DNA of 64,000 nt from Euglena gracilis (lineage: Eukaryota). Each line of letters begins with the position of its first letter. Position 1 is the first letter of the stretch. Made by a program: the position numbers and the translations under genes. Below, one piece after another: positions 418 to 52,420 of the stretch. The stretch covers positions 34,321,737 through 34,385,736 of the forward strand of contig CP154954.1 in NCBI GenBank assembly GCA_039621445.1, given 5' to 3'. The notes under the pieces were generated by a model that did not search any database, had not been told where the DNA came from, and saw only the letters and a program-made list of their open reading frames with translations.

Positions 418-585
418 TACTGGAGGGTACGTTTTTGTTGGCCCCCCCAGGACCCAGGGATGACTGCCCAGGGGGGGGGTGACAATTCGGGCACATGGCA
501 GATCAGGGTGAGGTTGGAATTTTGACTTGGCAAATTTGACCTGCGAATGCCAATTGACATTCCAAGGAATGTTCTGAAGGAAGGG

Positions 586-13700: not shown

Positions 13701-14301
13701 CCTGGGCTGACCTGGTAAATGTCCCCCGGAATGGTCGAATGCACCCATCTAAATGTGCTCATTTCTTGCAACCAACCTTCCCGCTGCATGTTTTTCTTAC
13801 CATTAAACCACGACAATCATGAAACCAACGGGTCCCCTAAATTTGGAGGCCTCCTGGAACACCCATTCGGTTACTCGGAGTAAGGCCCAATTTGGTCCAT
13901 TTTTACATGGTAACCTGGGCTGACCTGGTAAATGTCCCCCGGAATGGTCGAATGCACCCATCTAAATGAGCTCATTTCTTGCAACCAACATTCCCGCTGC
14001 ATGTTTTTCTTACCATTAAACCACGACAATCATGAAACCAACGGGTCCCCTGACTTTGGAGGCCTCCTGGAACACCCATTCGGTTACTCGGAGTAAGGCC
14101 CAATTTGGTCCATTTTTACATGGTAACCTGGGCTGACCTGGTAAATGTCCCCCGGAATGGTCGAATGCACCCATCTAAATGAGCTGATTTCTTGCAACCA
14201 ACCTTCCCGCTGCATGTTTTTCCTACCATTAAACCACGACAAACATGAAACCAACGGGTCCCCTGACTTTAGAGGCCTCCTGGAACACCCATTCGGTTAC
14301 T
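1774..14301 (+). repeat. Main 213-bp satellite array (~59 monomers)
   Basis: Continuous head-to-tail monomers with few substitutions and small indels. Ends at ...CGGTTACT 14301. Confidence 0.98.
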
Positions 14302-23436: not shown

Positions 23437-23650
23437 GCTGCTCTTTTTTAGGACCATAGTCCTTTTGCGACAGCCCTTCGCTTGGGACAAAAGACTCTGG
23501 CAGCCACCCATTCCACTCTACAGACAAAATGACACCTCGGGCTCCGCACTTTGCCATTGTGAGGCCATGCCTTGCTCGCCGGCGGTTTGTTGTGTGATTG
23601 TTCGCTGCGCTGGGTTAGGGGGCCCCGCTTAGTGCCTTTTTTCGCCGGAG

Positions 23651-25531
23651 TTGGCTGATTCCAAAATTGCCCTTCGACACCCAGAAGAAAGGAAAAGAGT
23701 TCACGAACGAAGAAGAACCAAGAAAAGAAGTCAATATCAATTCAATATACAGAAGTACACGAACCAGACGAATATCAAATCAAAAGTCAATTATCAAATT
23801 TCGAATTTGACTTCAATGAACAATGCAGTTGAGAAGAAATTGGAATTTCACGCCCGCGGACGTCCTGGTGCAGATGCCGCAGCAGCTGGAGAACTTGGAG
23901 ATGCGGTCATCACGTGGCAAACCGTGGCCGTTCTTCCCACCCAGCCCCCCACCCCAGAAATTTCCCAGCCCAAAACCCCCCCAGTGACGGCCACGGTCCT
24001 TGGACCACAGTGGCCAGAAGGCCCAGAAGACAGAAGCCAGCACCAGCCCTTTGTGGGCAAAGAATGGGCCATGGGGGCCCAAAATGCTTCAAATGCAAAA
24101 TGCTTGGCCAATCAAAGCCCACACATCAGGGGCATCTCCCCCAAAGGCGCCCAGCAGCCTGGGCACAAATTGGTCAGAAGATGGGGAGATGGAATCAAGG
24201 CCAAGGAGGTCAACACCACAGGGGCCATGGGGGCCAGTTTTTCAAGCAAATCCCCTCAGGAAGGGGCAGAAAAGGTCTGTCCAACCCCCCCAATTCATCT
24301 ATCACAACAGCCCCTCTCAAGGGGACAAGGGGGGGCCACAGCAGCCCCCCCAGATTTCCAATGGGGTTGGAGGCCAAGAAGAAATCAAGGCCTGGAAGAC
24401 CACAAGATGGATTATGGAAAAAAATTTATACATGGAAACCTTGGAGACCAGCAGGGTGGACCCACAGTGGCCACCAAGAAGCTAAAGCACCAGCAGGGTG
24501 GACCCACAGTGGCCACCAAGAAGCTAAGGCAGCTGCTGGAGAAATCCCCCGAGGGACCCACAGAGGCCCTCTGCCAAAAATGGGGGAAAAAGGGACCCAC
24601 AGTGGCCCTTTCATTGACCCAGCCCCAGGAGGAAAAGGGACCCACAGTGGCCCTTATGGAGGGAGGGGCAGGAACCCCTCCAACAATTATTCCTCAATTC
24701 CCAATGATTCAATCAAGGGGGGGACCCACAGAGGCCCCCCTATGGTATGTGAACCAACCACATCAACCTGGAGAAGACCAGATAGGCCAAACAGGGGCAT
24801 TAAGCCCTATGGTATGTCTTCCAACAACAAGATCATCCAGAGAGGTGAGCAGAGAGGGAGAGAGTGCATGCACATCCCCCCAGAAAAAATTTCTTTTTTC
24901 CAAGGGCCCAAGCCCTAGGGGACCTAGGGGTGCAATGTCCAACACCCCCAACCCAGCCCCCCCAGAGTCATCTTATCCAGAAAATATATTCAATGGGGGA
25001 AAGAGGGGGAGACACCCCCCTCCATCAAAGGTTGCAAAAAAGCCTAAAATGTCCAACACCCCCAGCCCAGCCCCCCCAAAATCATCTGATCCAAGAAATA
25101 AATTCCATGGAGGAAAAATGGGGAGACACCCCCCTCCAAAGGCTGCAAAACAGCCTAAAATGGTGGACAAAAAATGCCCCCCCCCCCCAACAACGTGTCA
25201 ACTCATCAGGGATGGCATTCAACCCCCCTGGCTCAGCCCACCAAAATTGTCCACCCACCCAAAACCCAGAGCCAACCTGGACCTGAACCAGGCAGAAAAA
25301 ATCCTGTTGGATTACGAAAAAACTGGGTCAATAAAACGAGTTTGGGAATCAGAAACCCAGCATTTAATCCCATGGTTTCTAATTTCGAAACCAGAAGGGG
25401 GAACAACCAAATGGAGAATGATCAGCGACTGCAGAGAATTAAATCAGCAGTTTCAAGTGAAACCTTTCAAGCTGGATCACATCCAGCACATTTTTCCAGT
25501 TTGGAAAAGGGCCACTGGGCAGCCAGAATAG
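23651..25531 (+). CDS. DIRS ORF1 (gag-like, repetitive) running into the RT N-terminus
   Basis: Low-complexity ORF with GPT(V/E)A repeats. C-terminal PWFLISKPEGGTTKWRMISDCRELN is RT-like. An overlapping frame 23914-24918 has a CxxC motif. Confidence 0.7.
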   Translation: MADSKIALRHPEERKRVHERRRTKKRSQYQFNIQKYTNQTNIKSKVNYQISNLTSMNNAVEKKLEFHARGRPGADAAAAGELGDAVITWQTVAVLPTQPPTPEISQPKTPPVTATVLGPQWPEGPEDRSQHQPFVGKEWAMGAQNASNAKCLANQSPHIRGISPKGAQQPGHKLVRRWGDGIKAKEVNTTGAMGASFSSKSPQEGAEKVCPTPPIHLSQQPLSRGQGGATAAPPDFQWGWRPRRNQGLEDHKMDYGKKFIHGNLGDQQGGPTVATKKLKHQQGGPTVATKKLRQLLEKSPEGPTEALCQKWGKKGPTVALSLTQPQEEKGPTVALMEGGAGTPPTIIPQFPMIQSRGGPTEAPLWYVNQPHQPGEDQIGQTGALSPMVCLPTTRSSREVSREGESACTSPQKKFLFSKGPSPRGPRGAMSNTPNPAPPESSYPENIFNGGKRGRHPPPSKVAKKPKMSNTPSPAPPKSSDPRNKFHGGKMGRHPPPKAAKQPKMVDKKCPPPPTTCQLIRDGIQPPWLSPPKLSTHPKPRANLDLNQAEKILLDYEKTGSIKRVWESETQHLIPWFLISKPEGGTTKWRMISDCRELNQQFQVKPFKLDHIQHIFPVWKRATGQPE

Positions 25532-26550
25532 ACCTGAAAGATGCCTATTTTCATATTCCAGTAAGTCCAGGCCTAAGGCCATTTTTAAGGCATCAGGTGT
25601 GGGGGCAAACCTGGGAATTCCAGGCAGGCTGTTTTGGCCTGAATGTAATGCCCCAAATTTTCATGTCAGTCATGAAAACATTCGAAAAGCTGTGGAGGAA
25701 AAGGGGCATCCAGGTATTTATTTACCTGGACGACATTTTGCTGGTGGCCCCAACACAAATCATCTTACAAAATCACCTGAACACAGTGGTCAGGGATTTA
25801 ATCAAATCAGGGTTCAAAATCAATGTAAAAAAGTCCACCCTGCAGCCCACCCAAATCGTAAATCATCTTGGATTTCAACTAAACTTCCAAGAGGGAAAAT
25901 TGCAGGTGCCCCCACAGAAAATAAAAACAGTAAAAAAGGAGCTGGGAAAAATGGTGAAAAAAGATTACATGTCAAAAAGGCAATTGGCTGCCATTTTGGG
26001 CCAAATCAGATGCAATCTCATGGCCCTGCCCTTTCTAAGGGCCTTTACGGATGCCCTGGCAAATTTTTTAGTGGAAAATTCCACAGCCCCCTGGGACTCA
26101 AAACACCCCATCTCCCAAAGAATAAAGGACCAATTAAGAGAAATAAAAACCTGCTGGACACCTGGGGGGGCAGACCCTTCCCCCAAAATGCAACCAGAGA
26201 GTTACACTCAGACAGCAGCACCCATGCCTGGGGGGGCTGGACATTCGAACAGGAAAAATTGTGCAAGAATTTTGGAGGGAAAACTCCATTCTGCACGTAA
26301 ATGTCAAAGAATTAAGTGCAGCAATAAGCACAGTTCAAAGCCTCAGCCAGCCAGGGGAAACTGTGTCCCTATCCGTGGACAATCAAGTAATTTACTATTA
26401 CTTAACAAAAGGGGGGGGGGCAGAAAAGACCCCTTCAATTCCATGCTAAGACCCTTCTTCAAATGGTGCATGGAACACAACATAAACCTGCAAGTAAAGT
26501 GGGTCCCCTCAAAAGAATGTCTGGCAGACCCCATAAGTGGGTGGGAAATG
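25500..26550 (+). pseudogene. DIRS reverse transcriptase and RNase H (frameshifted)
   Basis: RIDLKDAYFHIP, FGLNVMPQIF, YLDDIL and LGF motifs. RNase H motifs LHSDSS..AWGG, HVNVKEL and VDN lie in shifted frames, followed by LADPIS. Confidence 0.92.
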
Positions 26551-26995
26551 GACAGGGGGGATTATTCCCTAGATCCCCAACTTTTTCAATGGCTGAGGCA
26601 GCAGTTCAAAAATTACATAAGCCTGAAAACAGACCTTTTTGCCTCACCCGGCAACAAAAAACTGCCACAATTTGTGGCCAGGTGGCCCCACTGGGAAGCC
26701 ACAGCAGTGGATGCATTGCAATGTCCACTGGACAACATGGGGGGCCTTTATGCAAATCCCCCCTGGTCTGTAATTCAAAAATTTCTCCCCAGATTAAGAA
26801 GGATTCCTCAAGCCAAAGTTTTGATGGTCACCCCCTACTGGGATTCAGCCACATGGTGGCCCCAGTTAATAAAAATGAAAGTACCAGGGTCCCCCTGCCT
26901 GAAAATCACCACTTACAAGGGTATGTTCACCAATTGCAGGGGGGAAGAAATGCCACCCCGCAGGTGGCCCCTACTTTGCATGGTTTGCTCAGGCA
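26550..26995 (+). CDS. Dam-like DNA N6-adenine methyltransferase domain of DIRS
   Basis: DYSLD..LF, DLFASPGNKKLPQF, DAL, YANPPW and TPYW..ATWWPQL. Confidence 0.88.
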
Positions 26996-26999
26996 AATT

Positions 27000-27860
27000 C
27001 TGGAGGGGAAACAAAAACAAAATACACCCATTAACGATTTCCTGGGAGGGAACCCCAGCTTAAAGCGTTATCAAAGCGCTTTTACGCTTTTATGGGTGAT
27101 TTTGGACAAAATGGAGGTACCCCCCCTGAAGCCACCACTGACCAAGTGGTTGACGCTTTAATTCAACTGTTTCAATTTTCAAAGGCCCAAGCACGCAATG
27201 CATACAGTGCTATGCTATTAATCCCTGGCTTTGGGGGCCTGAGGTTCCATACCATGTTAGCACCTTATAAAAGGCTTTGGAACCAAAACCTGGAGAAATA
27301 TGGTGCATTCTGGGATCCACTCCCAATCCTCCTGGGGCTGGCACAGTCCCCCCTGCCCTCTGATATTTGTACATTGCGTACACAACTCATTTTCTGTTCA
27401 CGCATCCTCTGTTTATACAGAAGTTCAGATTTGGCACAGGTCCAAAGAACCACCAGTGTGTTGGGGGGGCACCCTACATCAAAATTAAACGTAAAGGGCA
27501 AAAGCTCCGTAAGTGGGAGAGAGTTGTCTCCATTCCCCAGTGCCCCCAAATCAGCCCCTTTCATTTAATGATGGCTTATGTGGCAGCAACACGTTTCTTT
27601 ATGAATCCTGGGGGCCCCCTGTTAATTACGTTAAAACCCCCCTACAAAGCCATTAAGGCAGATACCATTGCTTATATCACCAAAGAATTTTTGACCAAAC
27701 AGGGGGTACCCCCCCCCCCCCAGGTTTGGGGACCCCACTCCACCAGAGGGGCATGGGTTGGTTTACTCAAAAAATTGGGCCTTTCTGCCCAAGAAGTTTG
27801 TGAAATTGGTCAATGGAAGGGGGTGGAGGCTTTCACAGCCAATATCAAAGACTTGGTGCC
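27000..27860 (+). pseudogene. DIRS tyrosine recombinase (frameshifted)
   Basis: YRSSDL (catalytic R), IKRKG (K), HSTRG (HxxR) and GQW in the expected order across ORFs 27092-27568 and 27367-28344. Confidence 0.88.
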
Positions 27861-28599
27861 CAAGGTTCTTTGGAGAATGCCCTGGCCCCCCTTTTTTCAG
27901 TGCACAATCTGGCCTCACAATGACAAAGTGCGGAGCCCGAGGTATCTCGTACTCCCTCGAGGCAGACCGAGAAGGGAGGAAGGGACACCGAGGGCGAAGC
28001 ACAAAGACATTGTGAGCACGACACCCCGACCCACATACGAAAATTTGTCTTCAAACGCCCTCGGTCAGAAGATGGGGGCCAGGGGGAGGCAGAGGGGGGG
28101 GGGGACCCCCCCAGGGGAAAAGACAGCGCCATGGTCGCCACGTCGGAGACAATGCAGCCAACTCCGGCGAGGCGGCACTAAGCGGGACCTCCTAACCCAG
28201 CGCAGCGAACAATCACACAACAAACCGCCGGCGAGCAAGGCATGGCCTCACAATGTCTTTGTGCTTCGCCCTCGGTGTCCCTTCCTCCCTTCTCGGTCTG
28301 CCTCGAGGGAGTACGACTTTGCGCGTCTGTCCTTTGGAAGGTAAATACGGAATGTCAATGAACAACACCCAGAGCCAAAAGAGTACCAAAACCAGAAAAA
28401 AATCCAAGTCTACGATTTGAAGCGCAATGCCATTTGCGGTTTGTAAGACAGTGAAGCGATCGACTCGGCAATCTGTACAACGGGCGGATCATTTAGCGCC
28501 ATCTGGGGGACCTGGTGGTGCGGTTTCAACGTGACGAACCGATGCACTCTGGGACCTTTAGGGAACAACGAGGACATGACCAGGAGGGCGAAGCACAAG

Positions 28600-29229
28600 G
28601 GCTGGGTGAGCGCTTTCAAATTTATGTACCATCCATGATTGCTTCTCCAAAAATTGTGCAGTTTTTGACGAAAATTTAGATCCAGGCCCCCCCACCCTTC
28701 ACTGGAACTGTGTGGACACAAAATCTCTGTTGGGATGGGCCAAAAATGGTGGCCCACGGGCCTCTGCAAGAAAAGGCTTTAGAGTCAAAAACTGTTCTTT
28801 TACTGGTTGGGGAACGGGCACCTGATAATCCCAGCTGTGGGTTTTATCAAGGTCTAAAAATCTTTGAGGGTGTTGGTGAATGCCCTTAAAAGTCGTAGGG
28901 GGGTGCGGTTTGAACGAATTTGATCCAGAATTGCAGCCATTTTTCGACAGTTGAGGTGATTTGCAACCAAAAACTTTCCTATTGATTTTCTAAGGGTTTT
29001 CTTTTTTTTTTGAGGTGGGACTGGAAGTTTTCCTTCCTCCAAATTTATCACAGCTCCCAAGTGGGGAATACTGAAAACCTTCCTTGGTTCGCTGTTTTTG
29101 CGGATACTTCGGCCTCGGTTTTTTGTTGAGGCGGCCGCCGGGCTTCGAAGCCAAACTTTTCAATGTCTTCTTTTTTGTCCTTGTACTTTTGCCAGTGAAC
29201 CTTGCAATTCATTTTTTTCAGATTCCTGG
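28600..29229 (-). pseudogene. Decayed fragment of a second DIRS (RT C-terminus/RNase H)
   Basis: INLEEGKLPVPPQK...MAAILDQIRSN...LRAFTNTL aligns to LNFQEGKLQVPPQK...LAAILGQIRCN...LRAFTDAL of the intact copy. SSSEGWGGLD..FWR is RNase H-like. Confidence 0.8.
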
Positions 29230-29230
29230 T

Positions 29231-29579
29231 TCTTGCGTGCACAATCAATTGATATTTTTTGTAGTCTTGTACCAGTGCATTGGGTGGGCAAATAACCCTG
29301 TGTGTGAGATTGGTTTGAAATTGGTGGGTTAGAGTAGGGACTTTCTTAGGTTAATTAGGGAAAAATGGCAAGTCCTACTGTGGAAAATTGGTCGGCCGGT
29401 CTTGAAAATTTCAAAGAATCGGCCCAGCAAGGTCAAAAATTTAGTTCAGGCCTTCCAGCCGAACCACAGTAATATTTTCCCAAGGTTAAATTCGACTGAA
29501 AACCAAAAAATGGTATTTCAGTGATTTTCGGCCCCACTCAGGCAGATTTTGGACAAATTTTGGGTTAGGAACCCTTTAC
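29231..29579 (+). repeat. ~350-bp repeat, inverted partner of 39514-39864
   Basis: TCTTGCGTGCACAATCAATTGA...GGGTTAGGAACCCTTTAC is the reverse complement, with substitutions, of GTAAAGGGGTCCTAACCC...TCAATTGATTGTGCATGCAAGA. Confidence 0.92.
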
Positions 29580-30499: not shown

Positions 30500-33400
30500 C
30501 ACATCAACCCGTGCCCTCCCGGGCCATCTCTCAAATCTTGGTCAAAAATTTCCACCACTTTTAAAGAAATAAAATGTGCTGAGAAATCTGGCCCTCTTTT
30601 GCTTTTCAAAAAGCAAATCCAAATCTGTGAAGTTCTCACCTCCTTGCCATTCCAAAAATTGTTCCTCCGAACCCCGAAATTCCTTGGGTGGTACTTACGG
30701 GAGCCTCACCGACAAAATTGTCGGCCATGTCCCATGCCAGGGCAAGTTTCGTTCCAAAAATTCTCTGAAAATCCTGCACACCGTCCTTTACGGGGGGGTT
30801 GGGTTTCACCTCCTCTCCGTAAATAATACCTTTTAATTCCCTGAAATTGTGTCGGTACAACACGTCGACTGTTCGTTGGAACGCCCCCCACTCACTCGCC
30901 TCCGAATGAGTGGGGCTCATCCCCATTTTGTTCTTTCCAACTTTATTCCTTTCTTCCACACAACACGACCCGTAAAATTGAACAGATTCCACCTCCCACA
31001 CTTGCCCAATAAAAGCGTCAGATTTTGTGCCTTGGGTAAAATGGGCAGACTCAAAATTTTCATTGGTCGACCGTTCAACCTGTTTTTTCTTCTCTTTCCC
31101 CAAATTGGCGGAAGAAAATTGAAATAATTAACTGTTTTCCACTTGGGAGAATTGAGGGGTTTCAAAAGGCGTGTCAACCCTCCCCTCTTCCTTTTCCACC
31201 TGAAAATCAACACTTCCACCACCGTTTCCCAAAATCTGGGGTTCATCCAAATCCCAAATTCGCTTACGTCATGGGTCATTCGTGAGGGGGTACCCTGGGG
31301 GACCAACACCAAACCCTCCCCCTTTTCCTTTGGAATATGCCTTTCCTCTTTCCCGTCCACCTGAAAAAAGACCAAGTCTGGGAATCGGTATTTTTTATGT
31401 GACGTGCCACCAAAAATGTTTCCACCAAAACGGCGAAATTGTCCTTTGGACCCGGGGATGGTGAACTTGCATCAAACACGAACGGTTTGGCAAACCCTCC
31501 GCCATTCCCCGTATACGAGTGGGCTTTTTGTAGTCAAAGGGACTGCACTGACAAAAATCAAAATTCAAAAAAATCAGCCATTTCAAAAATTCACGGTCCT
31601 TCATGAGGCCGTTTCGGGGAACTTTAATGAAAATTATGAGGAGTTGTAAAAACTTGGTGAAGGAAAGTGTCATTTTGTGCGGGAATCGGCATACTCCAAA
31701 TTTCTTTCACACGTGGTGGGGCCATGACCATATTTCGTTTGCAGCACGGATGCAAAGGTCAAGTCCACCCCCCTCCAAATTTTGTTCCTGTAAAAAGCTT
31801 CAAACCCTTTGGTACTTTTGGCCCAAAAAATCGCTGGACTTTGTCCACAAAAGTGTTTGACTGTGGCGCAAACATTTTCTGAAACAAATTTTGCGCTGGG
31901 GGCACTTGAACAAAAGTGCTGCCCCTGAATCGTTGGCCACCATTTTTTCCTTGGGCAGTTTCCTAACCTTTGCCATTAAAATTGGTCGTCCCGCCCCCCT
32001 TGCCTCGTCCTCCCCTCCATGGGCATGGGGCCGAAAACTGGGTGTGGGGGGAGCTTGATTTGCATCCAGAATTTTTGTCCAACAGTTAGAGGCATTATTT
32101 CCAACCTCACCACAACACTTACATGGTGCTCTGATTGCACAGGTTGTGTGGTTGGGGTTTGGGAGCGGTGCTTCTTTCACATATGAAGAATTTTTTGACA
32201 GCGCCCGCCTTTCTTGACGATTTCTGGTGAAATTCTGAGAAAAATCCTCGTTCCGCGCTTTCTGAATGAATTTGGTCCCCCCATCCAATCGGGGGTTGAC
32301 TCGTTTCAGGGGGGGGCACCTGGCCCTTTAAATTCCATCCCCCCTCCGTTTGTTCAAGGCATCCCTGTGTCATTCCCATGATTTGAGCGGGGGGGATATG
32401 AGAATCGTTGGGGGAAAACAGCAATTTTTGTCCAAATGACCACCCATTGAGTAAAAGAAGCGAATTTTTGTCCCCTGCCAACTCCTTTGTGATTTTTTTC
32501 TTCGCTCTGGTTTTCATTCTTCCTTTCTTTGTGAAAAGTTTGGGGAATTTCCCGTCTTAGCACATGACAGGTGTGCATGAGATTTGAAAAAATCCTGAAT
32601 CGTCAACAATTCTGTCTCAAAATGTTTCCAAACTTCCCCAAAATACGTTGTTGAAAATCTGGACAGTTTCGTTGTAAAAATCTGCCAACGAAAAGAAAAT
32701 TCAGGCCTGTGACCTGAAACCTGTTGATTTTTGCCTCTTTTTCCACCATGTCCCAAAATGGGATACTAACAAAAATTGAAATCTGGCAACCAAAAACGGT
32801 GCCTTCCCCCATCATCCCTACCACTGCCCCCATCCCTGTGAGCAAAATTTGCACCGGATCCACAGAGATGGAAATTTTTCATTCGTTTCAAGGGGAAATT
32901 TCAGCACGCTTCGTTGGGGGGCATTCAAAGGGGTTATTGTTTGTGAGGCTGTTACTTCCAAACTTACGGAAGGAAAATCCACCATTCTGGGGGAAACAAA
33001 AAACAGAGTGAGGGGGGTGAAAACTGTTGTGGGTTGGGTAATGGGAACGTGCAAAGTGTGGCTTTGCCAACAGGGGTAGAGACAACCTTATGGTGCTCCT
33101 CCCATTTGGGCAAGACCACCACTCCAGCACTGTTGCCCGAAAAGCCTACCTCTGGGCCTAGGTTGCCGGAGTAGGGATCGACGGGGGAAAAATTGAAAAA
33201 TTGAAAAACGAACCCACTCACTCTCTCTGGGCTTCTCCTTCTCGTTCCTTCAGGTCCCAACCCAGGCCTTCTCATCGCTTCAAGTCCCAACCGTGGTCCC
33301 AACCCATAGCTCAGTCCCAACCCATAGCTCCTGGGTGGGGTACTCGTCGCTGCTCTGGGTGCTCCTGGGCCCCCCTGCACCGCCACCACAGCGGTGCGGG

Positions 33401-34600
33401 GGAGTGGGCCCCCGGACGCCGCCACCACAGCGACGCCGGGGTTGGGGGTCGTCCTTCCCGCGGTGTGAAAACAAAATTTGCGGCCAGTGATCTGGGCAGG
33501 GGGAAAACACTGCCCACGTTGACCCCCTTCCGCAATAAACTGGGATTCTGTCTGTTTGAAAATTCCGAGACCCTCCAATTGAGAAAAGCATCGCTCAATC
33601 CCAATAACCAAAGTGGAAATTTATACAAACCCTTTAATGTTCAGCAAAACTGCCTGAAACGGCGTTTGATTTGAGTTTTCCAAACCCAAAACTGGTAATT
33701 TCTCGTCAAAAAGTTCTTGCCTTTTGGCGCTGTCGTCCAAAGTTAAATTGGGCTGGAATTCCACTGAATTTTGATCACCTTTGACCAAAGCGATTTCTAT
33801 TTTTGAACCTGGGGGATCTGAAGTTTTTTCCAAAATTGCCCAGGGAAATTGACAACAATCTTCGCCAAGCACCATAAACTGAATTATTTCGTGCACTCTC
33901 CTCCTTGCACCTTCTTACCAAGGATCTTTGTTTCCCTCCTCCATCTCCGTTTGCACGGGGGGGGACTGAAATTTGTGTGAGTAGGACAATTCCCGTTTCT
34001 CCTCCACCAGCCAAAAAAGTTGATCCGTGCCCACTCCCAGCCTGGCGGGGCAAAAGTGAAAAATTTCCCGTACGGAGGATTCCACACAGCTTCGACAAGT
34101 TTAGCTGAAAAAATATGAAAACCACAGCAAAAATCTGTGGCACAAGGGAAAGTTGTTCCGTACAGAGGATATCACCCATCTCTGACCGTTTTGGCTGAAA
34201 ATCTGCTAAAGTCACAGGAAATTTCTGTGACAAGGAAAGGGAAAATCCACTTTTTTCACTTGAAAACTGAAAGATCCTTGGGTGAGACAACACCTGGGTT
34301 TTTTTTGTGGGGGAAAATCCGTGCCACTTTGCAAATGGGACCCTGCCTTCGACAACAAATCTTGCTGAAAATGAATTCCGTTGGCAAAAACTGTGGGGAG
34401 ACTTCAGAAAATTCCAGAAAATTCAGGGTCCTCATCGTAATTCTTGCTGAAGTTGGCCAATTTAACTGTGAAATACATTCTCGTGTCTGAAAATTCAGTG
34501 GTCACCCATGAAAATCTGCTGGGATTTCACTTTTCTGAAAAATCTGTGGTGATGCAACAAGTAAATTTGGCAAAGAATGATATTTCTGAAAATTCTGCAG
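30500..34600 (-). mobile_element. Heavily decayed LTR-type (gypsy-like) retroelement: gag knuckle, protease, C5-MTase-like domain
   Basis: CKCCGEVGNNASNC (CCHC remnant) and ANDSGA (aspartic protease remnant) in ORF 31800-32288. PNPPV pre-RT-like motif at ~30790. Boundaries uncertain and no LTRs found. Confidence 0.6.
31360..31810 (-). pseudogene. C5 cytosine DNA methyltransferase-like domain (degenerate)
   Basis: Collinear LKLFTGT (motif I-like), DLTFASV-(P)C-x-EY with compensating indels (motif IV-like), RNLEYADS, FIKVPRNGLMKDREFL (ENP position), DFCQCS..YKKPTRI.G and KYRFP. Confidence 0.65.
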
Positions 34601-34902: not shown

Positions 34903-35055
34903 TGAAAACACTTCCTTTGTTCGATGTTTTTGCGGACCCTTCGGCCTCGGCTGTTTTTTGAGGCGGCCGCCGGGCTTCGAAGCCTAATTTTTCAAACTTT
35001 TTCTTTTTGTCCTTAGGCTTTTCCAGTGCACCTGGAAATTCAGTTTTTTTTTCAA
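34903..35055 (+). repeat. ~150-bp direct repeat of 29072-29225
   Basis: Shared TTTTTGCGGA..CTTCGGCCTCGG..TTGAGGCGGCCGCCGGGCTTCGAAGCC..TTTTTGTCCTT..CCAGTG. Confidence 0.85.
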
Positions 35056-35263
35056 ATTATGTTACCCGAACGACGACTGCAACGAAGGGAAACCTTGTTG
35101 TCAGTCGGTTTTAGTGCTGTTGCACTGAAAAAAGAAGACTTCTATCTTAACCAAAAACCCTGTGAGAAAGACGGAAAATGAAGTGCAGGGGGGGGGTATA
35201 AATATGAAACATTCACATAACACACACGCATTGTTCAAAACGAAATCGTTTCAGAAAGTGTTT

Positions 35264-38200
35264 ATGTTTATGTGCATCATGCTGCCTGGGTGCGGACCTG
35301 GACCAGGTCCACCATGGACGCAGCCTTCCGGCGCGCCATACCCTCAGTACCCTCAGTATGCTGAACCCCCGGTTCCGGGTGCCCCACATGCTGAGAGGGT
35401 TTCAGCCCCGGTATTCGCCGCGGCTACCAGCTGCCGGTCCGCATATGCCGTACCGGATCCATCTGCCATCCAGCAGCTGGCACCCCAGCCACCAGTGCAG
35501 CGCAGATTGTGTCTGCCCCAGTATGCAGGAGAGATGATCTTCCGCACTACGGAAATGTTGGAGCAGGACATGCGTATGTGCGCACACCCCCAAACGGAAC
35601 CATTTATGCAAGCCCTTTGGGATGCATACCGTGCTCAGTTGTTGGTGGTAGCAAACGCGCCTGTGGCTCAGTGGTGTCCCCGTGGTCAAGCCCTGATGAC
35701 GGGGAGCCGGTACTTCTCGTCGGCATCCGATTCCGGATTTGAGCCTGGCGAGACAATGATGGACCTGGGCGTGTATGTACCGCCCACGCTGCAAACGCAG
35801 TCGCCGGTGGGATCCCACACCGTGCATATGCGTGAGCACACGCCCCCACCGGTAGGTGAGGCTGTGCATGTCCCACCTGGGATGACGAGACTTATTGCTC
35901 GCCCGCCCTCGCCGCAGCGAATGCCGCCGCGCAAGCCGCCAGCGGAGCAATTACGACGCACGCGGATTACCCGCGCGGCGCATGCGTGGTCCCTGCTGGA
36001 CAGTCGGCCGTGCCCCCTGAGGCATACGTCCAACACATGTTTGCGCACTGGATGCCACAGGCATCGCCGGTCGCCCCTGACCCTGGCGTTGAGCAACGGC
36101 GGCAGTTGGATCCCATAGTGGTGGAGGATGAACCTCCCCACCGTGTGGCAGCCCGACCGCCCAGTGCACCTCCTGTCCAGACCGGGGATATCCTCCGTCG
36201 GCAGGAGACTCCCTACTACCACATGGCAACTCCGAGAACCGAGCAGGATGAGCTTGCTCGGCACTTCCTGCAGGAGCCAGTATTCGCATCTGAAGAGCAC
36301 CGGACGAGGTATTACGCCTCTCTGGCTTCCCTTCAGGGCCGTGGATACACCCCATACCATCCGTACCAGCCGCAGCTGCGGGTGGCAACCCCGGTATTAC
36401 CCCGTGAGCCCCCAACAGGTGTGGCAGTATTACCTGCCACTCTGAAGCGCGACAGGGCTACGGATAACCTTACCCCACAGCCCAGGCGACCCAGCCCACG
36501 GGACGCGGAAGGCGGTGTGGCAATGCAGGTGGAAGCTGGCCAGGATACCACGGGTGGACGACCACCGGCTGAGACCCAGGGGGAGATGGTTCGTCCTGTT
36601 GCCGCAATGCCACCGCCGATCCCTCCGGTATGGAGCCACGACCCCCTGCGTCGAAGCCAAGCCCACACCAGGCTCCTAGCCAACGCCCAGCCACGCCATC
36701 ACCGCGACGTGCAGCGGATCGGCCAAGTCCCTCCACAGAGATGGAATGGGAAGGATCCGATCCGACTCCTGCGGCACCGAGCGCCCGACCCGTATTCGCC
36801 AGACGGGGAAGGACACTGGAGAGGCTGGGGGCAAAGGTAAGGAGAAGGCAAAGGCGTGGCCGGCAAAGGTAAGGGTGAGGGCAAAGGTGAGGGTTAAGGT
36901 AAGGGTACAGGACGTGAGGAGGAATAAGAACCAGCGGAAGTCCTCTCGGACTTTGAGCAAATGCTCAGGTTCAAGGAGGAGCTGGAGGACGAAGGCTGGA
37001 GAATGCAGCACGATTACCACGTTGCAAGAAACAGCCCCGTCACCCCTCCACGAGCAGTCATCGATGTGGTATTACGCCACACCGAGAACAGAGTCAGAGA
37101 ATTACATTACAGAAATGATCTGTACGCCTTCGAAGGTGAAGGTGGCAGACCCTTGATGGATGCCCAGCCAGGTTTCTGGGAGATCTGGTTTTGGCTGGGA
37201 TACCCCTGCCAGAACTGGGGTCTCTTCAGCGATTCCACTGGTCGCAGTTACCTGCACCAACTGGGATTCCGGGACCAGCATGTGTTGGCTCGGAGGCTGA
37301 AGGCCAACATCGAATGTATTCATTCGATAGGACCCCTCGGAGTCCAGTGGAAATACTACCCACTGAAGCCCGACATCGAACGCCTGATCGGGGTGTTGTG
37401 GTGCAACAACCTCCAGGTGTGGCTGGTGAGCCATTACGGCTCAACCTTCCGCGTTCGGCGCGTTTCCCTGGCTTACCCACAGAGGTATGACCCCTGTTGT
37501 AATTACTGTAAGCAGGAATTCCCTGTCTACTCCTGGGGATTCGGCGTCCGCGGAAGCCCTCCACCGCCTCGGGATAACCCGGGTCTGGAGATGGGACGCC
37601 GCATGCTTTTGCATGTGTGCCGCGACGCCCCGGATCTCCATCGCAGAAGTCGTCGCGTCCGCAAGCAGCATATTTTTATGCTGCAGCAGTTCTGGTGGCG
37701 AGCCTGGACCACCTACGTCATGGAGGTGTATTTGCATCTCCATGACCCCCAGGAGGATAGGCCTGGTATGACAAGCTTGCTACCGGACATTGAGGGTCCT
37801 CATCGTCGTCCGGTCGTCGCCGACCTGCGCCCTAACTGGAACCTGGCTGATATCAACCTGAAAGAACATTTACGGCGACAGTTTGGCGGTACCCTCGACA
37901 GGGAGGTACTCCGCCAGTTGATGGTGCACCCGAATGCCATCCTCGACATGTGTATGCTGATTCTGGCATGAGTTCAGGAGTTCGAGGAGGGCTTTCTCGA
38001 GGTCTGGGAGGATACGCGTTACAGCGGATTCCTGGGCCCGAAAAGGCCTCCCAACGCCTGGGTGCAGCCATCATGGCCGCCACCCTGGCCCAACAGCGCC
38101 AGTAGCAGTACGCTGGCCTTTTACAGGCTGGCGGATGCTCAGGGATGCCGATGGCACCCCGCCGATCCTCGTTTGCCCCAAGATCTGCGCGCCTTCATCG

Positions 38201-39040
38201 TCCCGGAGGATGAACCTCTGGCCCGAAGGAGACGTGAGGCGTCAGTCGCTTACACCACCGCGATTCTTCGCCCCTCCGTCACCATTCTGGAGGCAGCACC
38301 GCCGTCTCGGACAGGAACGGCTGTATCCTTCGTCTCTGCCGTGCGAGCGGCAGGGGAACGATCAGTTTCCCCGGCCCCCGCGGCGGCTCCCGTCTGTCCA
38401 CCGGTAGGTGGAGACCAGGAACTCCCTCAGGAGGAAGGCGAGTTCGTGGAGGATATCCTCCACGCTGCTCTCCCTGCTCCGGCACAGCCTAGGCCAGTCG
38501 AAGAACCTGCAGGCAATATACCTGTGGCTGCTACGCCTGTTCCAACGGCTGAGCCTCCCGCCGAGGTGACTGGCATGGTCATCGAGGATATCCTCGAAAA
38601 ACATACCAGCCCCGCAGCACGCACCTCATTAGGAGGCCGTGTACTCGGCGCCGTGGTCACTGGTATCACAGCCGTGGCTGCAGAACTAACGCTACCAGGT
38701 GGAGGCGTAGCGTCAGGCTCCGCCGCCGAGGTCGTGGAGACACCGACAGTTGGATCAAGGACTGGGAGACCCCGTCCTTTGATGTCAATGATCCGGAGCA
38801 CAACACCATCCGGAGCGAATCAGCTCCGCAGCGTTCCCCACGCCAAATGGAGATGGTTGAGAACCCATTAGGGGACCCACAACTCGACTACTGGCGTGAG
38901 GTGCAAGAACGTCCAGCCGATAAAGGCAGGTGAGGCGGCAGTCTTTCAGAACCCTCGTCAGGTATGCCTGACACCCTGTTCGGTTATTTGCCCGAACACC
39001 CCTTCGAAGACCCTTTGCGGTACTCGCCGCTAGTAAGTTC
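35264..39040 (+). pseudogene. Large orphan ORF (~1200 codons, a few frameshifts/stops), probably an extra ORF3 of a gypsy family
   Basis: ORFs 35162-36118, 35986-36840, 36961-37971 and 38062-38871 join up; the last two are in frame across one TGA. Pro-rich N-terminus, GKG repeats, Trp/Cys/His-rich core. Followed by gypsy 3'-UTR homology. Confidence 0.7.
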
Positions 39041-39513: not shown

Positions 39514-39864
39514 GTAAAGGGGTCCTAACCCAAAAATTGTCCAAAATTTGCCTGAGTGGGGCCGAAAATCACTGAAATACCATTATTTTGGTTTTCAGTC
39601 GAATTTAACCTAGGGAAAAGATTATTGTGGTTCTGCTTGAAGGCTTGAACTCAGTTTTTGACCTTGCAGGGCCGATTCTTTGCAATTTTCAAGACTGGTT
39701 GACCAATTTTCCACAGTAGGATTTGCCATATTTCCGTAATTAGCCTAAGAAAGCCCCCACTCGTACCCACCAATTTCACACCAAATCTCACACACAGGGT
39801 TATTTACCAACACAATGCACTGGTACAAGACTACAAAAAAAATCAATTGATTGTGCATGCAAGA
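39514..39864 (-). repeat. ~350-bp repeat, inverted partner of 29231-29579; abuts the chromodomain
   Basis: Reverse complement of 29231-29579 with scattered substitutions. Confidence 0.92.
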
Positions 39865-40649: not shown

Positions 40650-41500
40650 TGTTTTAGTTTTGTAAGAACGATTTCCGTTTGTTGGAATTAATTTCTGTGA
40701 TACGTGATTGGAGTGCATAGCGGAGTGATTCCACTTCTGCAAAACACGTTTCACAGCCGACACTGCTTCGGGCGGGTCTCTTCGAGGGTATATCCCCTGT
40801 GGCCGGAGGGTCTCGTCCGAAAACAATTTTGTACGGTGAGTGTGGTAATACCAACCCTGGCAAGGTATTGATGTGAAATAAACACCAACGAAGAAAGTAT
40901 AACCAATTCTTTCCCCAGTCAGTCAGTGAAATTGCGAAGCATATTCACGACGTATTTCACGGCTGCCTCGGCTCTACCATTGCCTTTCGGGCGTTATATA
41001 ATGGAAAAATGCTGCTCAATGCCGAGTAAACCGCACAAAGTTGTGAAAAACCACCAAGAGATCAAGGGATCTTGATCACTCAGGATTTCGTTCGGTAACC
41101 CCATTAAGCATATACATTTATCCAGGAATATGGATGTCAAAATTTGGGCTGTCAACCCTGCTTTCCGGCATGGAATGGCTACTATGTACCAACTCAGCCG
41201 ACAGACGACAACAAAAACGTAATCGTAATTTTTTTTTGTCTTGTCCTTTGCAAGGTTCATGTTCGAGAAAATCCATTCAGATGGACGTAAAAATGTCTGG
41301 TGGTACGGGAAAAAGTCCATCGTACCAGGGGGGGTACGTCTGTGTGGTTTCGCAGCCTGACAAAATTGGCACCGTTGGGAAATTCGCAAACGGCGCGAAT
41401 ATAAATCTTTTTCACTCAGTGTTGTGCAATATTTGCGACCCACTAGTGAATGAAATTATGGGGCCCGAGGGTGACCTGGTTAAACAATATTTATAACCAG
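40650..41500 (-). pseudogene. Gypsy integrase (element B)
   Basis: CQFCQAAK, FVVVCRLSWY..AIPC, GLPNEILSDQD, a KGNGRAE-like motif, and SPYKIVFGRD. Confidence 0.92.
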
Positions 41501-41829: not shown

Positions 41830-42082
41830 GATAATACGAGGGGGCTCGGCTGAGAGGATCCGCAACTTTTTGCGTGTGACCTGGGGCATAGATAACCACC
41901 AGGTTAAACTGGCTCAAGAACTCATGCCATCGGCATCTTCAGCCAACTGATGACATGGCCTTGTTCAGGTCCTCGGTATATCAGTGTTGAAGGCTCTCAT
42001 GATCCGTCAACACGAGTATCTGGACCAAGCTGCCTGGCTATCCAGCTGCGGAATTGCTGTGGAATAAGCACAATGGGATATG
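41830..42082 (-). pseudogene. C-terminal half of element B RNase H
   Basis: Continues from REKETY: PIVL..FRSWI, VLTDHESL, RWHEFLSQFNL and ADPLSR. Confidence 0.88.
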
Positions 42083-46768: not shown

Positions 46769-49700
46769 TCACTCAAAAACCGAACAGGTGGCCATATCAG
46801 CCGTTGACTTTCTTGACGCATATACGTCTCTGACTATATGAGCGCTAAAGCGGGGATGATCCCTTTGGTTACGTGGGGTATCATCCCCCTCCCTGCCCGA
46901 AGCCGGGTGATAATCCTCGATAGAGGGTGTTCTTTGACCTACCTTGTGCCTTTTGGCTAAAGTATGATCTTTTGAACTGCGACTCATATCGCGATGGCTG
47001 TGGCTTAGGTGGTGAGAGTTCGCATAGCGACAGTTGAGGGAGGGGTGGTTGCTGGATCCGCACAGTGAACATTTTGATCGTGATTGGTATTTTGATTTTT
47101 GCGAATGCGCATTTTGTGAAAAACGAGAACTGCGTGATGAGGTTGATCCTCTTGGGCTTGTGTTGCGCCTTCGCGCTGCAGGATTTGGACAATGGCAAGA
47201 TATATGACCCTTTTTGTTACACAAAAAGCACAATTTGTCCGAAAATTCTCCTGAAGAGCGCGAATTGCGCAATTTAGATTCCGCTATAGCGGTATGTGAT
47301 AAGCGTGACACATTTTTCACAGAACTGACGTGGATAGCGGGTATTCCTGCTGTGGGGTAGCTCGTATAAGCCGACTGGATTTGTCCTAAAAGCTGTGATA
47401 GCTTCAATTGTTTGGAAACATAGTTCCATCGCTCATCGAGCGTCAAAATATGTCCTGCGAGTTCCTCTCGGTGAATTTCTTTTATGAGTTTGGGTATAAA
47501 GTGCAGTAATACTGCGTCAAATTGCTCTTTCATTTGGTTTTCGCCTAAGTCGTCTACTTCGGCTGCCAAAGAAAGCCATTTTGAGTACCATAGGTCTATC
47601 GACCTCTATTTTCGGTCATGGGGGGCATATTGCCGCCATTTTTTCTCCAGAGTGATTCTGGAAACCAAACTTGAACATGATGAAGCGTATTGCTCAACCA
47701 AATCCTGAAAAGAAATGCACCCGCGAATGACCAATTGTCTGGCGCGTTCCTTTTCATCTTTTGGTAGACAATCTATGAATTCCATTTTGGTCACCTCTGG
47801 ATTTTCGTCCTGGGTTGGTCCCTTCAATTCCCAGTAGTACTCCCAGTCACGGAAAAACTGTTTCCATGTTGTTGGGTCACCGTCCCATTGGGGCTTCACC
47901 TTTTTCGCGATAGCGATACTTCCTTTGATATCTTTTTGAGGCTCCCATGGCCCTTCGGTGGTATTCAAGCAAGTTGGGCCTGGGCGCAAAACCGCACCAT
48001 GCGCGGGTACCTCGGTGGTTGCACCAAGTGTACTTTTGGATGTATTTTGCGAATGCGCATTCAATATTCCACTTGGTGTACCGTAGGTACCTTGCAAACT
48101 TGGTGAATCGCGAATGCGCGAATGGTGATGCTGATGCATCTCAGGATCAATACCATGTGCGGGAGTGCGGCTCATACCGCAACAAAGTTCATATTCCCAA
48201 ATTTTTCGATTTCTTTGAGGGTTTCGTTTGGCTTTCTCTTGAAAACTAACCCTATCATCCAAAAAATGGTCCATTGGGACTGGTACCGCTTGGGGAGGGA
48301 CTACTGCATGAGCAGAATCGTAATTTTGTGGCAATGTGCCAATAGGCTCTGCCACAGGTGCAGTGTTAGCGCTTTTGGAGCTGGAATCTGCGGCAAGTGT
48401 GCCTACAACACCCGTATCGGGTTTTTGCTGTAAAAAACGCAATTGTGCGTGTACTTGATCCAAATTTTCTGTAAAGTCATGAAAATTTTTCTCCAAATCA
48501 TCGAGAATTTTCAGATGATCGGTGATTGCACCAATATCTTCCTGCAAGCGCTTAATACGCCTGCGGTGTTTGGACATATCGTCCAGAAGAGGGATTTTGT
48601 CAGAAATCAACAGGAAATCCTGCGAAATTGCACCAAAAACAGTGTCCAATTCTTGAACTCGTACTGCTAAAGTACGTATCGCACTGGAAATGATCTCCAA
48701 TTGTGGAGATGGTTGGTCCGAATGCAGACTTTTGACTATTTCAGCCTTTGTCTGTTCCATCAAGACCGAAACTTGCGCGGATAGCGCGATAATGTCATTT
48801 TGCAGTTTTGTGACATCCTGCTTCACCGTTTTCTCGGTGTTCATGAGACTATCACAAAATCCTTGCATAAATTCGTCATTTTCCGCGCGCATTTCAGCGC
48901 AAAACTGCTCCAAGTGTAGGGATGTGAGTGTGGGTATGGGTGTGGTCGACGGCAATGCGTCTGGGGTTGGTGATTGCACCTGAAGCAATTTTGTGCTTAA
49001 TTCTTGCATGCATATCTGTAAATCCGCTATCGCGGTTTGAATTACGGTTACATCTGTAATTTTGCCATTTGTTTCCGCACAGCGGGCATGGAACTTAGCC
49101 AAAGCGGCTTCAATTTCTACCATGTCACTTTGCCGCTGTTGTTGCAAATCCTCAAACCTACTCGCAATATTTGCGATTTGGGTGTGAAAACTTGCAACTT
49201 CAGCAGGAAATTCACCAGAATGATGAGATTTCTGCTCCAATCGAGAAAGTCTCTCCTCCAATTGTTTCACATAAGTAGGGGTTGCAAAACTTTCATGTGC
49301 TTGAGCAGAAACTTGTGCAAAATTCGCGGAATCACCGCTCAATTGGAGAATGCGCTGTTGCGCTTTCTGGAAATCAGTTGCAAGGTTGGAAAACTGCTGC
49401 AGTGTGATAAATTGTCTGATAGGACTTGGACATGGGAGCACATGGGGGGGGCGGGATAAAATTTGGTATTTCTAACCCAACCTCAATAAAAAGTGGATGT
49501 GGAGCAACCGCCTCAGAATCAAATGTGCCTATCGGCATTGGTGCGATATCTCGCTGGGGGGTAAAACTGTCAGCCAATCGGCTTTCCACCAAAAGTGGTT
49601 GAGCCTGTTGGGCTATGGGCAGCTCGATAGGGCTGCTGGACACCGATAGGTGTGGGGGAGCCCATTGGGCGGGGGGATGAGGCACCATTAGGTTTGCACC

Positions 49701-50254: not shown

Positions 50255-50673
50255 AGTGTACGTCCCCTGACTCTATTCCCACTGCCTGTCGGCCTACTTA
50301 CATCCTCCCGTGGGAACAGAACCAGGAGAGTAACAAAAAAGAAAATCTTTCACTTAACTGTTAGTTTTTATTGCCTTTGGGCTGATGCAGAGCACAAGGC
50401 AAAGAGAGGGATTTGTTTGGAAACTCGTTCCTCCAATGTCCTCCTATCGGAGTGTTGAACTTGAAATCTTGGTTTGCCCTTTTGGGCTAATGAAATGTGA
50501 AACAGAATAACAATACCACCTGTGAAAAGAGAAGGCAGATCCGAGATAGGATAGGCTATTCCTAATTCTGCAACTTGTATTGCAGAACTTGGAATAGTAC
50601 TATTTGGCATAACATTGTACATTTTGTAGGCTGCTGCTATGCACAGTGCCATGTTCATGCTGCCTGGTACACA
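50255..50673 (-). repeat. 5' LTR of element A
   Basis: TGTGTACCAGG...GTACACT on the element strand. Direct repeat of 42083-42501. Confidence 0.95.
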
Positions 50674-51900
50674 ATATGTCTCCTTTTCGCGAACGCTCCA
50701 TTTAACCTGTCCTTTCCCGTTGTCGCCCTGTAGCTTCCTGTTGAAGAAAGCCACAGGTCGGAGTTCATTCGCCGCATTATGCTGGCTAAGAACCCCGCCA
50801 ACAGCGTAATCGCTGCTGTCGCCTATCAGGACACATGGTTTGTATGAATCCGCGATATCGAGAACCACGTCCTCGAGGAGCAAGTCCTTGATTTTATTCA
50901 AGGACTCGCACATTTGCGTTATCGGGTGTCCGATTTTTGAGTTGTCGGGTTAAGGGTACCGCGATTGTTTGCCAAATTCTTCATGTAAATCGGGTAATAT
51001 TGGGCTAATCCCCAAAATCCATTTAAGTGCGTTAAGGTCTTAATGACCTCAGGAGTCCGTCTCTTAATGGCCTCCATATTGCTGGGTGCGGCTTTACACT
51101 GCCCGTTGCTCAGGATGTGCCCGCAAAACTTAATAAATTCGCGAAACAGGTGCATTTTGGAACCCTTCACAAAAATCACATGCTTTTGGAACGCGGATAA
51201 TACCGCCTGCACATCGCGATAATGCCGTTCAAGGACACCCTCGCCCGATTTCGCGGATGGTGGTTGGGTTCCCACCAGTGCATCATCGATGTACACCAGA
51301 GCAAACGGCAAATCGCGCAAAACCCACTGGATCATGCGTTGATACATGACTGGGCCATTCTTCCCATGACTGGGTCCATTGGTACACACCCTTGGATGTC
51401 ACGAATGACGTGTACGTTGCGAATCAGGATGCAAATGCATCTGATGGACACCGTCTTCCAGAAATAAGATTGACCACAACCGGTTATCCGATCGTTTAGT
51501 GATTAAATCCTCGATCAGCGGTAACGGGAGGGAGTCATCATTCATTTGGGAGTCAAGGTACCGGTAATCCAGCACCAGTCTCCACTTCTTCTGACCAGAC
51601 TGGTCAGCGGGTTTCGGCACCACAAAACCTTGTGATGTCCACTCGCTCCTGGAAGGGATAATCCATTTCCACTAGATGAGCTTCTCAATCATCTCGTTGG
51701 GAGCTTGTTCGCTTTCACACGAAAAACGGAATATTTTCGGGTGCATGAGTTTAGCGCCTTTCTTGAGCTCGTTTTTGCAAACACCGAACGGCCCGCCAGT
51801 CGCGGGGTCGATGCCGCAGGCGTAAACTGGGTTATCCAGTACACCATGGAATTCGCGAGTGATTCGTGAACAATAGTCATCTGACTTGGTGTGTTGGTCC
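50674..51900 (-). pseudogene. pol: Gypsy reverse transcriptase and N-terminal RNase H (element B)
   Basis: VPKP..KWRLVLDYR..LPLIEDL, YQRMI..VYIDD, FCGH, DSSDYAVGGVLSQ and RPVAFF.RKL. Confidence 0.93.
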
Positions 51901-52089
51901 GCACTCTTGATAACCGCAGAAATCTGCGTTGAGGGTGTGGCCACCCCATTGGTACCAAGGCATCATAGCACACGCAAAACGGATATTCCGAATGCGACAA
52001 AGAAACAAACGTGAAAAATGTATTCTTTAACAGCTGTAATACTATACCGCAAAAATCCTCGAATAGTGGTTCATCAGAGGGTTAATCCC

Positions 52090-52420
52090 ACCAATGAAAA
52101 CACACACATACAATAGCTGCTGAACCCAATCCGCATTCGGATTGACGGGTATGATGAGAGCTCCTCGCGCTTCATCGCGGAGGATTCTCTGCACCACATC
52201 CGGAAGAAGTTTTGGGGTAGGGTGCATCCACAGCACCGTATCACCCCAGAATTTTAGAAACACGTTGGAATGTCACGACCAATGTCGCGAGAAGCGCGCA
52301 TGCGCTTGTGATGAAAACGCATCAATTTCCAGCGACAAATCGAGGGAATCAGCCAACATCGCGATTTTGGAGAACGATTCCTCCAAAATACGGTATTGGC
52401 CAAAGTTAAATGCATTCTAT
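52090..52420 (-). pseudogene. Dam-like N6-adenine methyltransferase domain inside gypsy pol
   Basis: YRILEESF..LEIDAFSSQAHARFSRHW*..NVF..FWG..LWMHPT..LPDVVQRILRDEARGALIIP...W...L. Collinear with the DIRS MTase at 26550-26995. The NPP position reads HPT. Confidence 0.72.

Follow-up and report, generated by a model that had tools for sequence, protein, structure and literature searches.

A decayed C5 cytosine methyltransferase domain in the Euglena gracilis genome, homologous to those borne by Ty3/gypsy LTR retrotransposons

We analyzed a stretch of 64,000 nucleotides from the genome of Euglena gracilis (contig CP154954.1, positions 34,321,737 to 34,385,736 of the forward strand; this whole stretch is called the window, and its own numbering is used below). 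The minus strand at 31337-31792 carries what we consider, with a probability of roughly 0.85, to be a relic, no longer functional, of a C5 cytosine DNA methyltransferase (DNMT) from a family that is borne in the polyproteins of Ty3/gypsy long terminal repeat (LTR) retrotransposons, often directly behind a Dam-like adenine methyltransferase (DAM). The relic is homologous to this element-borne family. The copy is dead: motif IV has lost its catalytic cysteine and motif VI its glutamate and asparagine by substitution, the coding sequence is broken by two frameshifts, and most of the N-terminal part, which binds S-adenosylmethionine (SAM), is missing; the relic therefore cannot methylate. Its element family has already been described as a kind, and the locus adds one dead, context-free copy to it.

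A DNMT domain spread across three reading frames

The relic was delimited with our own three-frame local alignment of DNA to a hidden Markov model, with frameshifts allowed. The model has 225 positions and was built from 54 full-length domains of the family, with the window sequence excluded from building. Bit scores are approximate, as are the background frequencies behind them, which were the same for the target and for the null blocks. On the minus strand, the alignment begins at 31792 and ends at 31337 (about 460 bases), covering profile positions 57-217. It scores 79.3 bits, compared to 24.4 bits for the next-best alignment elsewhere on both strands (128 kb in all). Its path contains no stop codon, crosses two frameshifts and deletes 10 profile positions, and 59 of 151 residues are identical to the consensus. 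The match is collinear with the profile over about 160 positions, which are distributed over three reading frames; no continuous single open reading frame (ORF) covers the relic, given the frameshifts at 31671-31672 and 31472 and the 10 deleted positions. Its parts are the following.

31673..31792, minus strand: piece 1, profile positions 57-98; the motif IV region, then R-N-L-E-Y-A-D
31671..31672, minus strand: frameshift, 2 nucleotides skipped, in an A4 run
31473..31670, minus strand: piece 2, profile positions about 99-170; motif VI, D-F-C-Q and Y-K-K-P-T-R-I-R-G
31472..31472, minus strand: frameshift, 1 nucleotide skipped, beside a T3 run
31337..31471, minus strand: piece 3, C-terminal, profile positions 170-217; K-K-Y-R-F-P, where the family has K-K-Y-R-I-P
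31780..31800, minus strand: candidate trace of motif I, L-K-L-F-T-G-T(-K), in another frame and overlapping the start of piece 1

When the three pieces are scored separately, none is equaled by any of its null blocks. Piece 1 (31792-31673), which carries the string DLTFASVLQTKYGHGPTTCERNLEYAD, reaches 25.1 bits (0 of 1058 null blocks score as high), piece 2 reaches 60.5 bits (0 of 633), and piece 3 reaches 20.4 bits (0 of 942). Piece 2 holds VPRNGLMKDREFL, DFCQ and YKKPTRIRG, and sits inside a stop-free frame of 103 amino acids (31398-31706, minus strand). Piece 3 also received weak tblastn segments from four of the family proteins described below (P0048, P0054, P0055 and P0060).

A first-pass annotation, made by a model from the letters alone, had recognized the domain by a series of short strings. 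All of them (LKLFTGT, FASV, RNLEYAD, VPRNGLMKDREFL, DFCQ, YKKPTRIRG and KYRFP) are present on the minus strand where it had placed them, in three frames; the motif assignments fared less evenly. The (P)C that it had given after FASV does not exist in the sequence. In the best reading, which stays in frame, motif IV is A-S-V-L-Q-T-K-Y (family A-S-P-P-C-T-E-Y), with Leu-Gln in the columns of Pro-Cys; the catalytic cysteine was substituted and not frameshifted away. RNLEYAD is not motif VI but matches R-D-L-x-x-A-D, which the family conserves between motifs IV and VI. Motif VI itself is K-V-P-R-N-G (family E-N-P-R-T-G), with Lys-Val-Pro in place of ENP. Downstream, Y-K-K-P-T-R-I-R-G differs from the family's Y-K-K-P-T-R-I-W-G by one residue.

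The identification of LKLFTGT(K) with motif I is suggestive only: compared to the family's L-D-L-F-S-G-T-G, the second glycine is replaced by lysine, and 7 of 777 null blocks score at least as high as its 15.4 bits. If the trace is real, some 35-40 residues (profile positions about 24-56) have been deleted behind it. Apart from this possible trace, profile positions 1-56, with the SAM-binding motifs I-III, are missing from the relic.

We considered whether the gene might be intact in the organism, with the breaks being homopolymer-indel errors of the assembly. Both frameshifts fall at short homopolymers (A4 and T3), and between 14 and 35 kb of the window the observed/expected ratio of same-base dinucleotides is about 1.5; assembly error could thus account for these two breaks, not for the substitutions and deletions. 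Indel errors cannot produce the in-frame loss of the catalytic cysteine and of the E-N of ENP, nor can they produce 56 missing N-terminal and 10 deleted profile positions or a consensus match of 59 in 151. Moreover, the neighboring DIRS-like element retains open frames of 630 amino acids in the same assembly. We regard an intact gene as very improbable.

Homology searches

The unaltered 103-amino-acid frame was used as a phmmer query against 1.84 billion representative proteins and gave 40 matches at E<=1e-3, the best with E=6.5e-8, 48.7 bits and 40% identity. All but two belong to one family; the two (P0004 and P0040; the P numbers designate retrieved proteins) are low-complexity repeats. The Pfam family DNA_methylase (PF00145) was detected in 23 of the 40 matched proteins at E<=0.1; in every case the match spans roughly positions 2-120 of the profile, and 14 of these 23 reached its gathering score of 22 bits. 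One of the matched proteins, P0039, also contains a reverse transcriptase domain (RVT_1, 3.1e-29) and RT_RNaseH, and P0013 and P0034 have weak matches to aspartyl proteases. When the retrieved proteins were compared by tblastn with the window at 31416-31706, 37 of the 40 matched, with E-values from 4e-14 to 3e-9.

The claim that a fossil C5 cytosine methyltransferase domain lies here is thereby borne out. A frameshift-aware comparison, as had been proposed along with it, gave the family match of 79.3 bits. The contrary outcome that had been named (a repaired consensus lacking PC/ENP and giving no C5 methyltransferase match) is not what the family shows: PC and ENP, substituted in the relic, are kept in its intact relatives.

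A search of the Protein Data Bank (PDB) sequences with phmmer pointed in another direction: its five best matches were METTL16 chains (E=0.18-0.3), with I-K-V-P...D-F-C-x-C aligned near the NPPF of METTL16. The region would then be a pseudogene of a METTL16/RlmF-type RNA N6-adenine methyltransferase. These E-values are not significant, and the corresponding Pfam family, Methyltransf_10, was not matched at E<=10. The same ORF obtained its 48.7 bits with the DNMT family from a library 10,000 times larger, and the frames upstream and downstream of the ORF that aligned to METTL16 extend the DNMT profile collinearly. With a DNMT match that is far stronger, and collinear in three frames, we rejected the METTL16 assignment for practical purposes; its probability is negligible.

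Motif series of this kind can be fitted by eye with some ease: the same three frames also accommodate, by eye, two other methyltransferase families. A reading of motifs in three frames of decayed DNA therefore proves little, and the pieces of the relic lack a Pfam match. That the series is a chance pattern is nevertheless extremely improbable in view of the phmmer E-value of 6.5e-8, of 79.3 bits compared to at most 24.4 elsewhere, and of three pieces that each surpass every null block. A DNMT3-like reading of the frames, likewise made by eye, could not be quantified and was dropped.

The intact DNMT family

With the DNMT part of P0039 as query, 65 further, longer relatives were retrieved. Among these, PF00145 was detected in 24, Chromo in 19, Dam (PF05869) in 16, RVT_1 in 15 and Phage_integrase in none. 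Eleven are proteins of Cymbomonas tetramitiformis, and one is a partial protein labeled "Genlisea aurea".

The most informative relative is P0047, in which RVP (27-75), Dam (208-302), the DNMT (386-486), RVT_1 (739-903) and RNase H (976-1114) follow one another. Its motifs DTGA (54), NPPW (254), FTGTG (388), ENP (484) and YIDD (847) all lie in one ORF. From motif positions, P0047, P0055 and P0041 share the layout protease (PR), DAM, DNMT, reverse transcriptase (RT). Four others (P0051, P0084, P0013 and P0053) have the layout DNMT, PR, RT, and no NPPW/Dam motif was detected upstream in them. If the N-termini of these four proteins are complete, LTR elements with a DNMT only exist beside the type with both DAM and DNMT.

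Intact relatives of the kind that the first-pass annotation had suggested looking for thus exist. Of the aligned family rows, 86 of 89 retain PC, 85 of 89 retain ENP and 61 of 77 retain FxGxG, and P0047 combines the domain with PR and RT in a single ORF. A 30-sequence alignment of the family has an invariant cysteine and an invariant E-N-P. In a PDB profile search with the family, DNMT1 was the best match (3.1e-5); PPC paired with PPCQ and ENP with ENV. The AlphaFold model of P0008 has pLDDT above 90 over residues 1-210, and its top Foldseek matches were DNMT3B, DNMT3A and DNMT1 (about 1e-7). The family thus has the fold and the motifs of C5 methyltransferases.

The E-N-P form of motif VI, instead of E-N-V, also occurs in small phage and prokaryotic C5 methyltransferases. 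Using P0008 as a tblastn query, 42 phage records matched at E<=1e-3 (best 2e-15), and among those listed, 9 of 12 are annotated as DNA or C-5 cytosine methyltransferases. Enzymes such as those of Bacillus phage Bcp1 and Haloferax tailed virus 1 share 25-33% identity with P0008 over up to 209 of its 302 residues. These phage enzymes are free-standing genes, whereas the family to which the relic belongs is fused into retrotransposon polyproteins. The ORF of the relic itself gave only noise against phages (tblastn, E=6-7), and an Rfam scan of the sequence gave no match.

The surroundings of the relic and the type of its carrier

The first-pass annotation placed the methyltransferase within a second element of LTR type, immediately behind a CCHC remnant and a DSGA protease remnant. 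No RT, RNase H, integrase, PR or DAM domain adjoins the relic, and no clear LTR was found. The two strings in question are as follows.

31920..31931, minus strand: D-S-G-A tetrapeptide, putative protease remnant; 12.9 bits with the family's protease sub-profile, a score that 288 of 601 null blocks reach
32082..32123, minus strand: C-x2-C-x4-N-x4-C string, putative CCHC remnant; CKCCGEVGNNASNC from 32123, with no His

Both strings exist as quoted, and CKCCGEVGNNASNC and DSGA share one frame of 175 amino acids upstream of the relic. The six frames of the window contain no D[ST]GA other than DSGA, a mild hint at best; the score of DSGA is not above chance. The cysteine string lacks the histidine of a CCHC knuckle and is one of 15 occurrences of C-x2-C-x9-C in the six frames. 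The true CCHC knuckles of the window number three, at 47071, 47230 and 54077, all in other elements. The region of 32123 and 31931 matched neither zf-CCHC nor a protease family in Pfam. With both strings at background level and no element domain adjoining, neither the placement directly behind gag and protease remnants nor that inside a second LTR-type element is supported.

Several further results weigh against the reading of the relic as a DNMT of this LTR-element family. None of the seven single-frame pieces of the relic matches PF00145 or any other Pfam family at E<=10, and NCBIfam likewise gave no match; membership among the C5 methyltransferases is therefore transitive, by way of the relatives. 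A word-index search with the ORF of the relic ("longer" setting) found no match, and comparison of the window with itself (blastn and tblastx) revealed no second copy. The read-through of the relic is only 32-38% identical to any relative, and its placement in the family tree is unsupported (support 0.028, branch length 2.15); its parent may or may not have had a DAM. Near the relic, the family profile for RT, PR and RNase H gave background scores, as did the PR and DAM profiles upstream of it. The best score of a PR-DAM profile at 31700-33500 on the minus strand was 16.8 bits, which is background, compared to 73.1 and 56.7 bits at the two DAM domains of the window. (The DAM in the LTR element of the window was detected with this cleaner profile of 18 sequences, and not with a heterogeneous one of 47.) Among the minus-strand ORFs of at least 45 amino acids between 28.4 and 35.1 kb, 0 of 52 match a retroelement family of Pfam at E<=0.1. 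Finally, the link to the EpiLTR elements of Euglena that are discussed below is drawn from architecture and from the description in a preprint, not from a named sequence.

The relic might alternatively derive from a DNMT on a carrier without LTRs: a DIRS-like tyrosine-recombinase element, a long interspersed nuclear element (LINE), a virus, or a DNMT gene of the host. A DIRS-like RT fragment (29063-28857) lies on the same strand as the relic, 2.3 kb downstream of it, and is 51% identical to the RT of the window's intact DIRS-like element. DNMT-bearing DIRS and LINE elements are among those reported from Symbiodiniaceae in the consulted parts of PMC5890265, and the portion of a preprint available to us describes mixed DIRS/LTR clades and possible chimeras in E. 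gracilis (10.64898/2026.05.21.726589). The want of an adjoining LTR-element domain points the same way. On the other hand, unrelated repeats truncate the RT fragment at 29063/29072, and the 1.7 kb between it and the relic could not be assigned to any element. Every relative that is long enough to show its context has modules of the Ty3/gypsy type (RVT_1 with RT_RNaseH, rve, Chromo), and a tyrosine recombinase domain is found in 0 of the 65 relatives. A carrier other than an LTR element is accordingly unlikely, and we prefer the Ty3/gypsy origin.

The sole direct repeat around the relic, 29072-29224 and 34903-35058 (5.8 kb apart, about 155 nucleotides, 83% identity), shows no evident TG...CA termini in the alignment of its two copies. 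The adjacent repeat unit 29231-29579 recurs inverted at 39514-39864, 10 kb away, with 91% identity. These two units are the repeats that truncate the DIRS-like RT fragment at 29063-28857.

Given the Ty3/gypsy origin, the relic would once have been part of a full element. Its parent may have lost RT, RNase H, integrase and any DAM or PR through deletion and later insertions or rearrangement, in what is a repeat-rich, satellite-flanked region.

Relation to known methyltransferase-bearing elements

Capture of DNMT domains by retrotransposons in dinoflagellates and a charophyte, cited as background in the first-pass annotation, is correctly stated: the 2018 article PMC5890265, as far as its text was accessible, reports SymbioDIRS-Dnmt3 and SymbioLINE-Dnmt in Symbiodiniaceae and a DNMT-bearing Gypsy element in a charophyte. 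The last is called "Gypsy-DNMT3" in the preprint 10.64898/2026.05.21.726589. In the portion of that preprint at hand, EpiLTRs are LTR retrotransposons of E. gracilis and C. tetramitiformis with DAM, DNMT and a chromodomain; DAM-LTRs and mixed DAM-LTR/DIRS clades of E. gracilis are described as well, and the EpiLTR DNMT is placed as sister to DNMT4, distinct from those of Symbiodiniaceae and the charophyte.

The relatives of the relic resemble the EpiLTRs, as these are portrayed in that portion, in their domain combinations (Dam, DNA_methylase, RVT_1 and RNase H in some, rve, Chromo and DNA_methylase in others) and in the eleven C. tetramitiformis proteins among them; the window, for its part, holds both DAM-LTR and DAM-DIRS elements. 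Two differences stand beside these likenesses. The relic is a DNMT fragment that is dead and stands alone, since neither DAM nor RT, integrase or chromodomain adjoins it, and the layout with the DNMT before the protease (P0051, P0084, P0013, P0053) does not appear in the consulted parts of the preprint. With the elements of Symbiodiniaceae and the charophyte, as described in the consulted parts of the two sources, the family shares a DNMT captured in the coding region of a retrotransposon, intact catalytic motifs in live copies, and the proposed self-methylation of complementary DNA (cDNA); the carriers and, on the preprint's placement, the DNMT clade are different.

According to what these sources infer (PMC5890265 and 10.64898/2026.05.21.726589, in the parts consulted), the pol-encoded DNMT of live copies would modify CG sites, either in the cDNA of its own element or where that element has newly inserted. 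By such CG self-methylation, an element might blend into a heavily CG-methylated host genome. Retrotransposon-borne DNA methyltransferases bear more widely on how mobile elements manipulate host epigenomes, an idea that is already published (in PMC5890265 in 2018, and in the 2026 preprint for the same DNMT family in combination with Dam-like domains, as far as the available text of each goes). What the locus illustrates for annotation is that the family leaves fossils too decayed for detection with Pfam.

The window contains a second type of DNA methyltransferase in a Ty3/gypsy element on the minus strand (50668-53334), which is probably the "element B" of the first-pass annotation. Its PR match ends at 53167, a Dam-like domain follows at 52329-52111, and RT occupies 51923-50937. 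An N6-methyladenine (6mA)-type writer does sit in the post-protease slot of this element, between PR and RT, as had been claimed. This Dam-like domain has an in-frame stop, and its N-P-P-W has become H-P-T-P. Remnants of its RNase H and integrase (41834-42031 and 40997-41455, minus strand) are found about 8 kb beyond this DAM-LTR element, with other sequence containing long gag-like ORFs in between.

From the post-protease position of both writers, the first-pass annotation had gone on to suggest a swappable methyltransferase cassette. The modules are indeed movable, and a one-for-one swap is not what the relatives display, in which the DNMT is stacked behind DAM or stands before PR. The evidence is for stacking and rearrangement of writer modules, with the DNMT usually behind DAM in the interval between PR and RT.

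The relic may instead stem from an old, separate LTR lineage of this host that carried the DNMT alone beside the protease, without a Dam-like domain. We think this improbable. If it were true, this lineage, the LTR element with a DAM only at 50-53 kb and the PR-DAM-DNMT-RT and DNMT-PR-RT layouts of the relatives would together mean, in line with the first-pass annotation, that retroelements of the host have repeatedly shuffled 6mA and 5-methylcytosine writers around the protease. DNMT-only elements could then also escape a DAM-based screen, which is the starting point of the preprint in the text at hand (10.64898/2026.05.21.726589).

A methyltransferase of yet another setting is the Dam-like "MT" domain of DIRS retrotransposons, described by Goodwin and Poulter (cited in PMC5890265, in the part consulted). 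It is likewise carried by a retroelement and is present in the window, in the DIRS-like ORF 25159-27060. It differs from the DNMT of the relic in being an N6-adenine enzyme, structurally unrelated to the C5 methyltransferases, and in its position after RT/RNase H and not after the protease. One satellite-flanked island of 64 kb combines the DNMT relic with two neighboring DAM-bearing elements, of which one is DIRS-like and the other an LTR element.

Other elements and sequence features of the window

The DIRS-like element on the plus strand (23523-28344) is nearly intact, and its ends are inverted repeats. In its ORF 25159-27060, RVT_1 matches with 3.7e-19 (RT at amino acids 107-241) and Dam weakly with 0.0012 (amino acids 474-569, after RT). 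The RT ORF is 74% identical to the EukProt sequence EG_transcript_6737, whose style of identifier is used for Euglena gracilis. The last ORF (27364-28341) has no Pfam recombinase match; read by eye, it is a putative tyrosine recombinase. The observed/expected ratio of CpG in this element, 0.29, is the minimum of the window.

On the minus strand, 46772-49471 contains two adjacent open frames of 278 and 621 amino acids, with the CCHC knuckles at 47230 and 47071 and with no Pfam match at E<=0.001. They look like a gag-like protein that belongs to a further element, which was inserted into the DAM-LTR element or next to it. A GC-rich block on the plus strand (35129-38868, 55-59% GC) holds four long ORFs, also with no Pfam match at E<=0.001; two of them, 36928-37968 and 37972-38868, form one frame with a single stop between them.

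Arrays of a 213-bp satellite (copies 84-97% matching) at 1-14301 and 58765-64000 lie on either side of the transposon island and are oriented oppositely. In keeping with this, the GC skew is constant at -0.18 over 2-14 kb and at +0.16 over 60-64 kb. Same-base dinucleotides have observed/expected ratios of 1.43-1.60 in 14301-34900, compared to 1.12-1.21 from 34.9 to 58.7 kb. This enrichment, which may stem from the composition of the elements, from mutation bias or from assembly chemistry, entails many short homopolymer runs in the relic and its neighbors.

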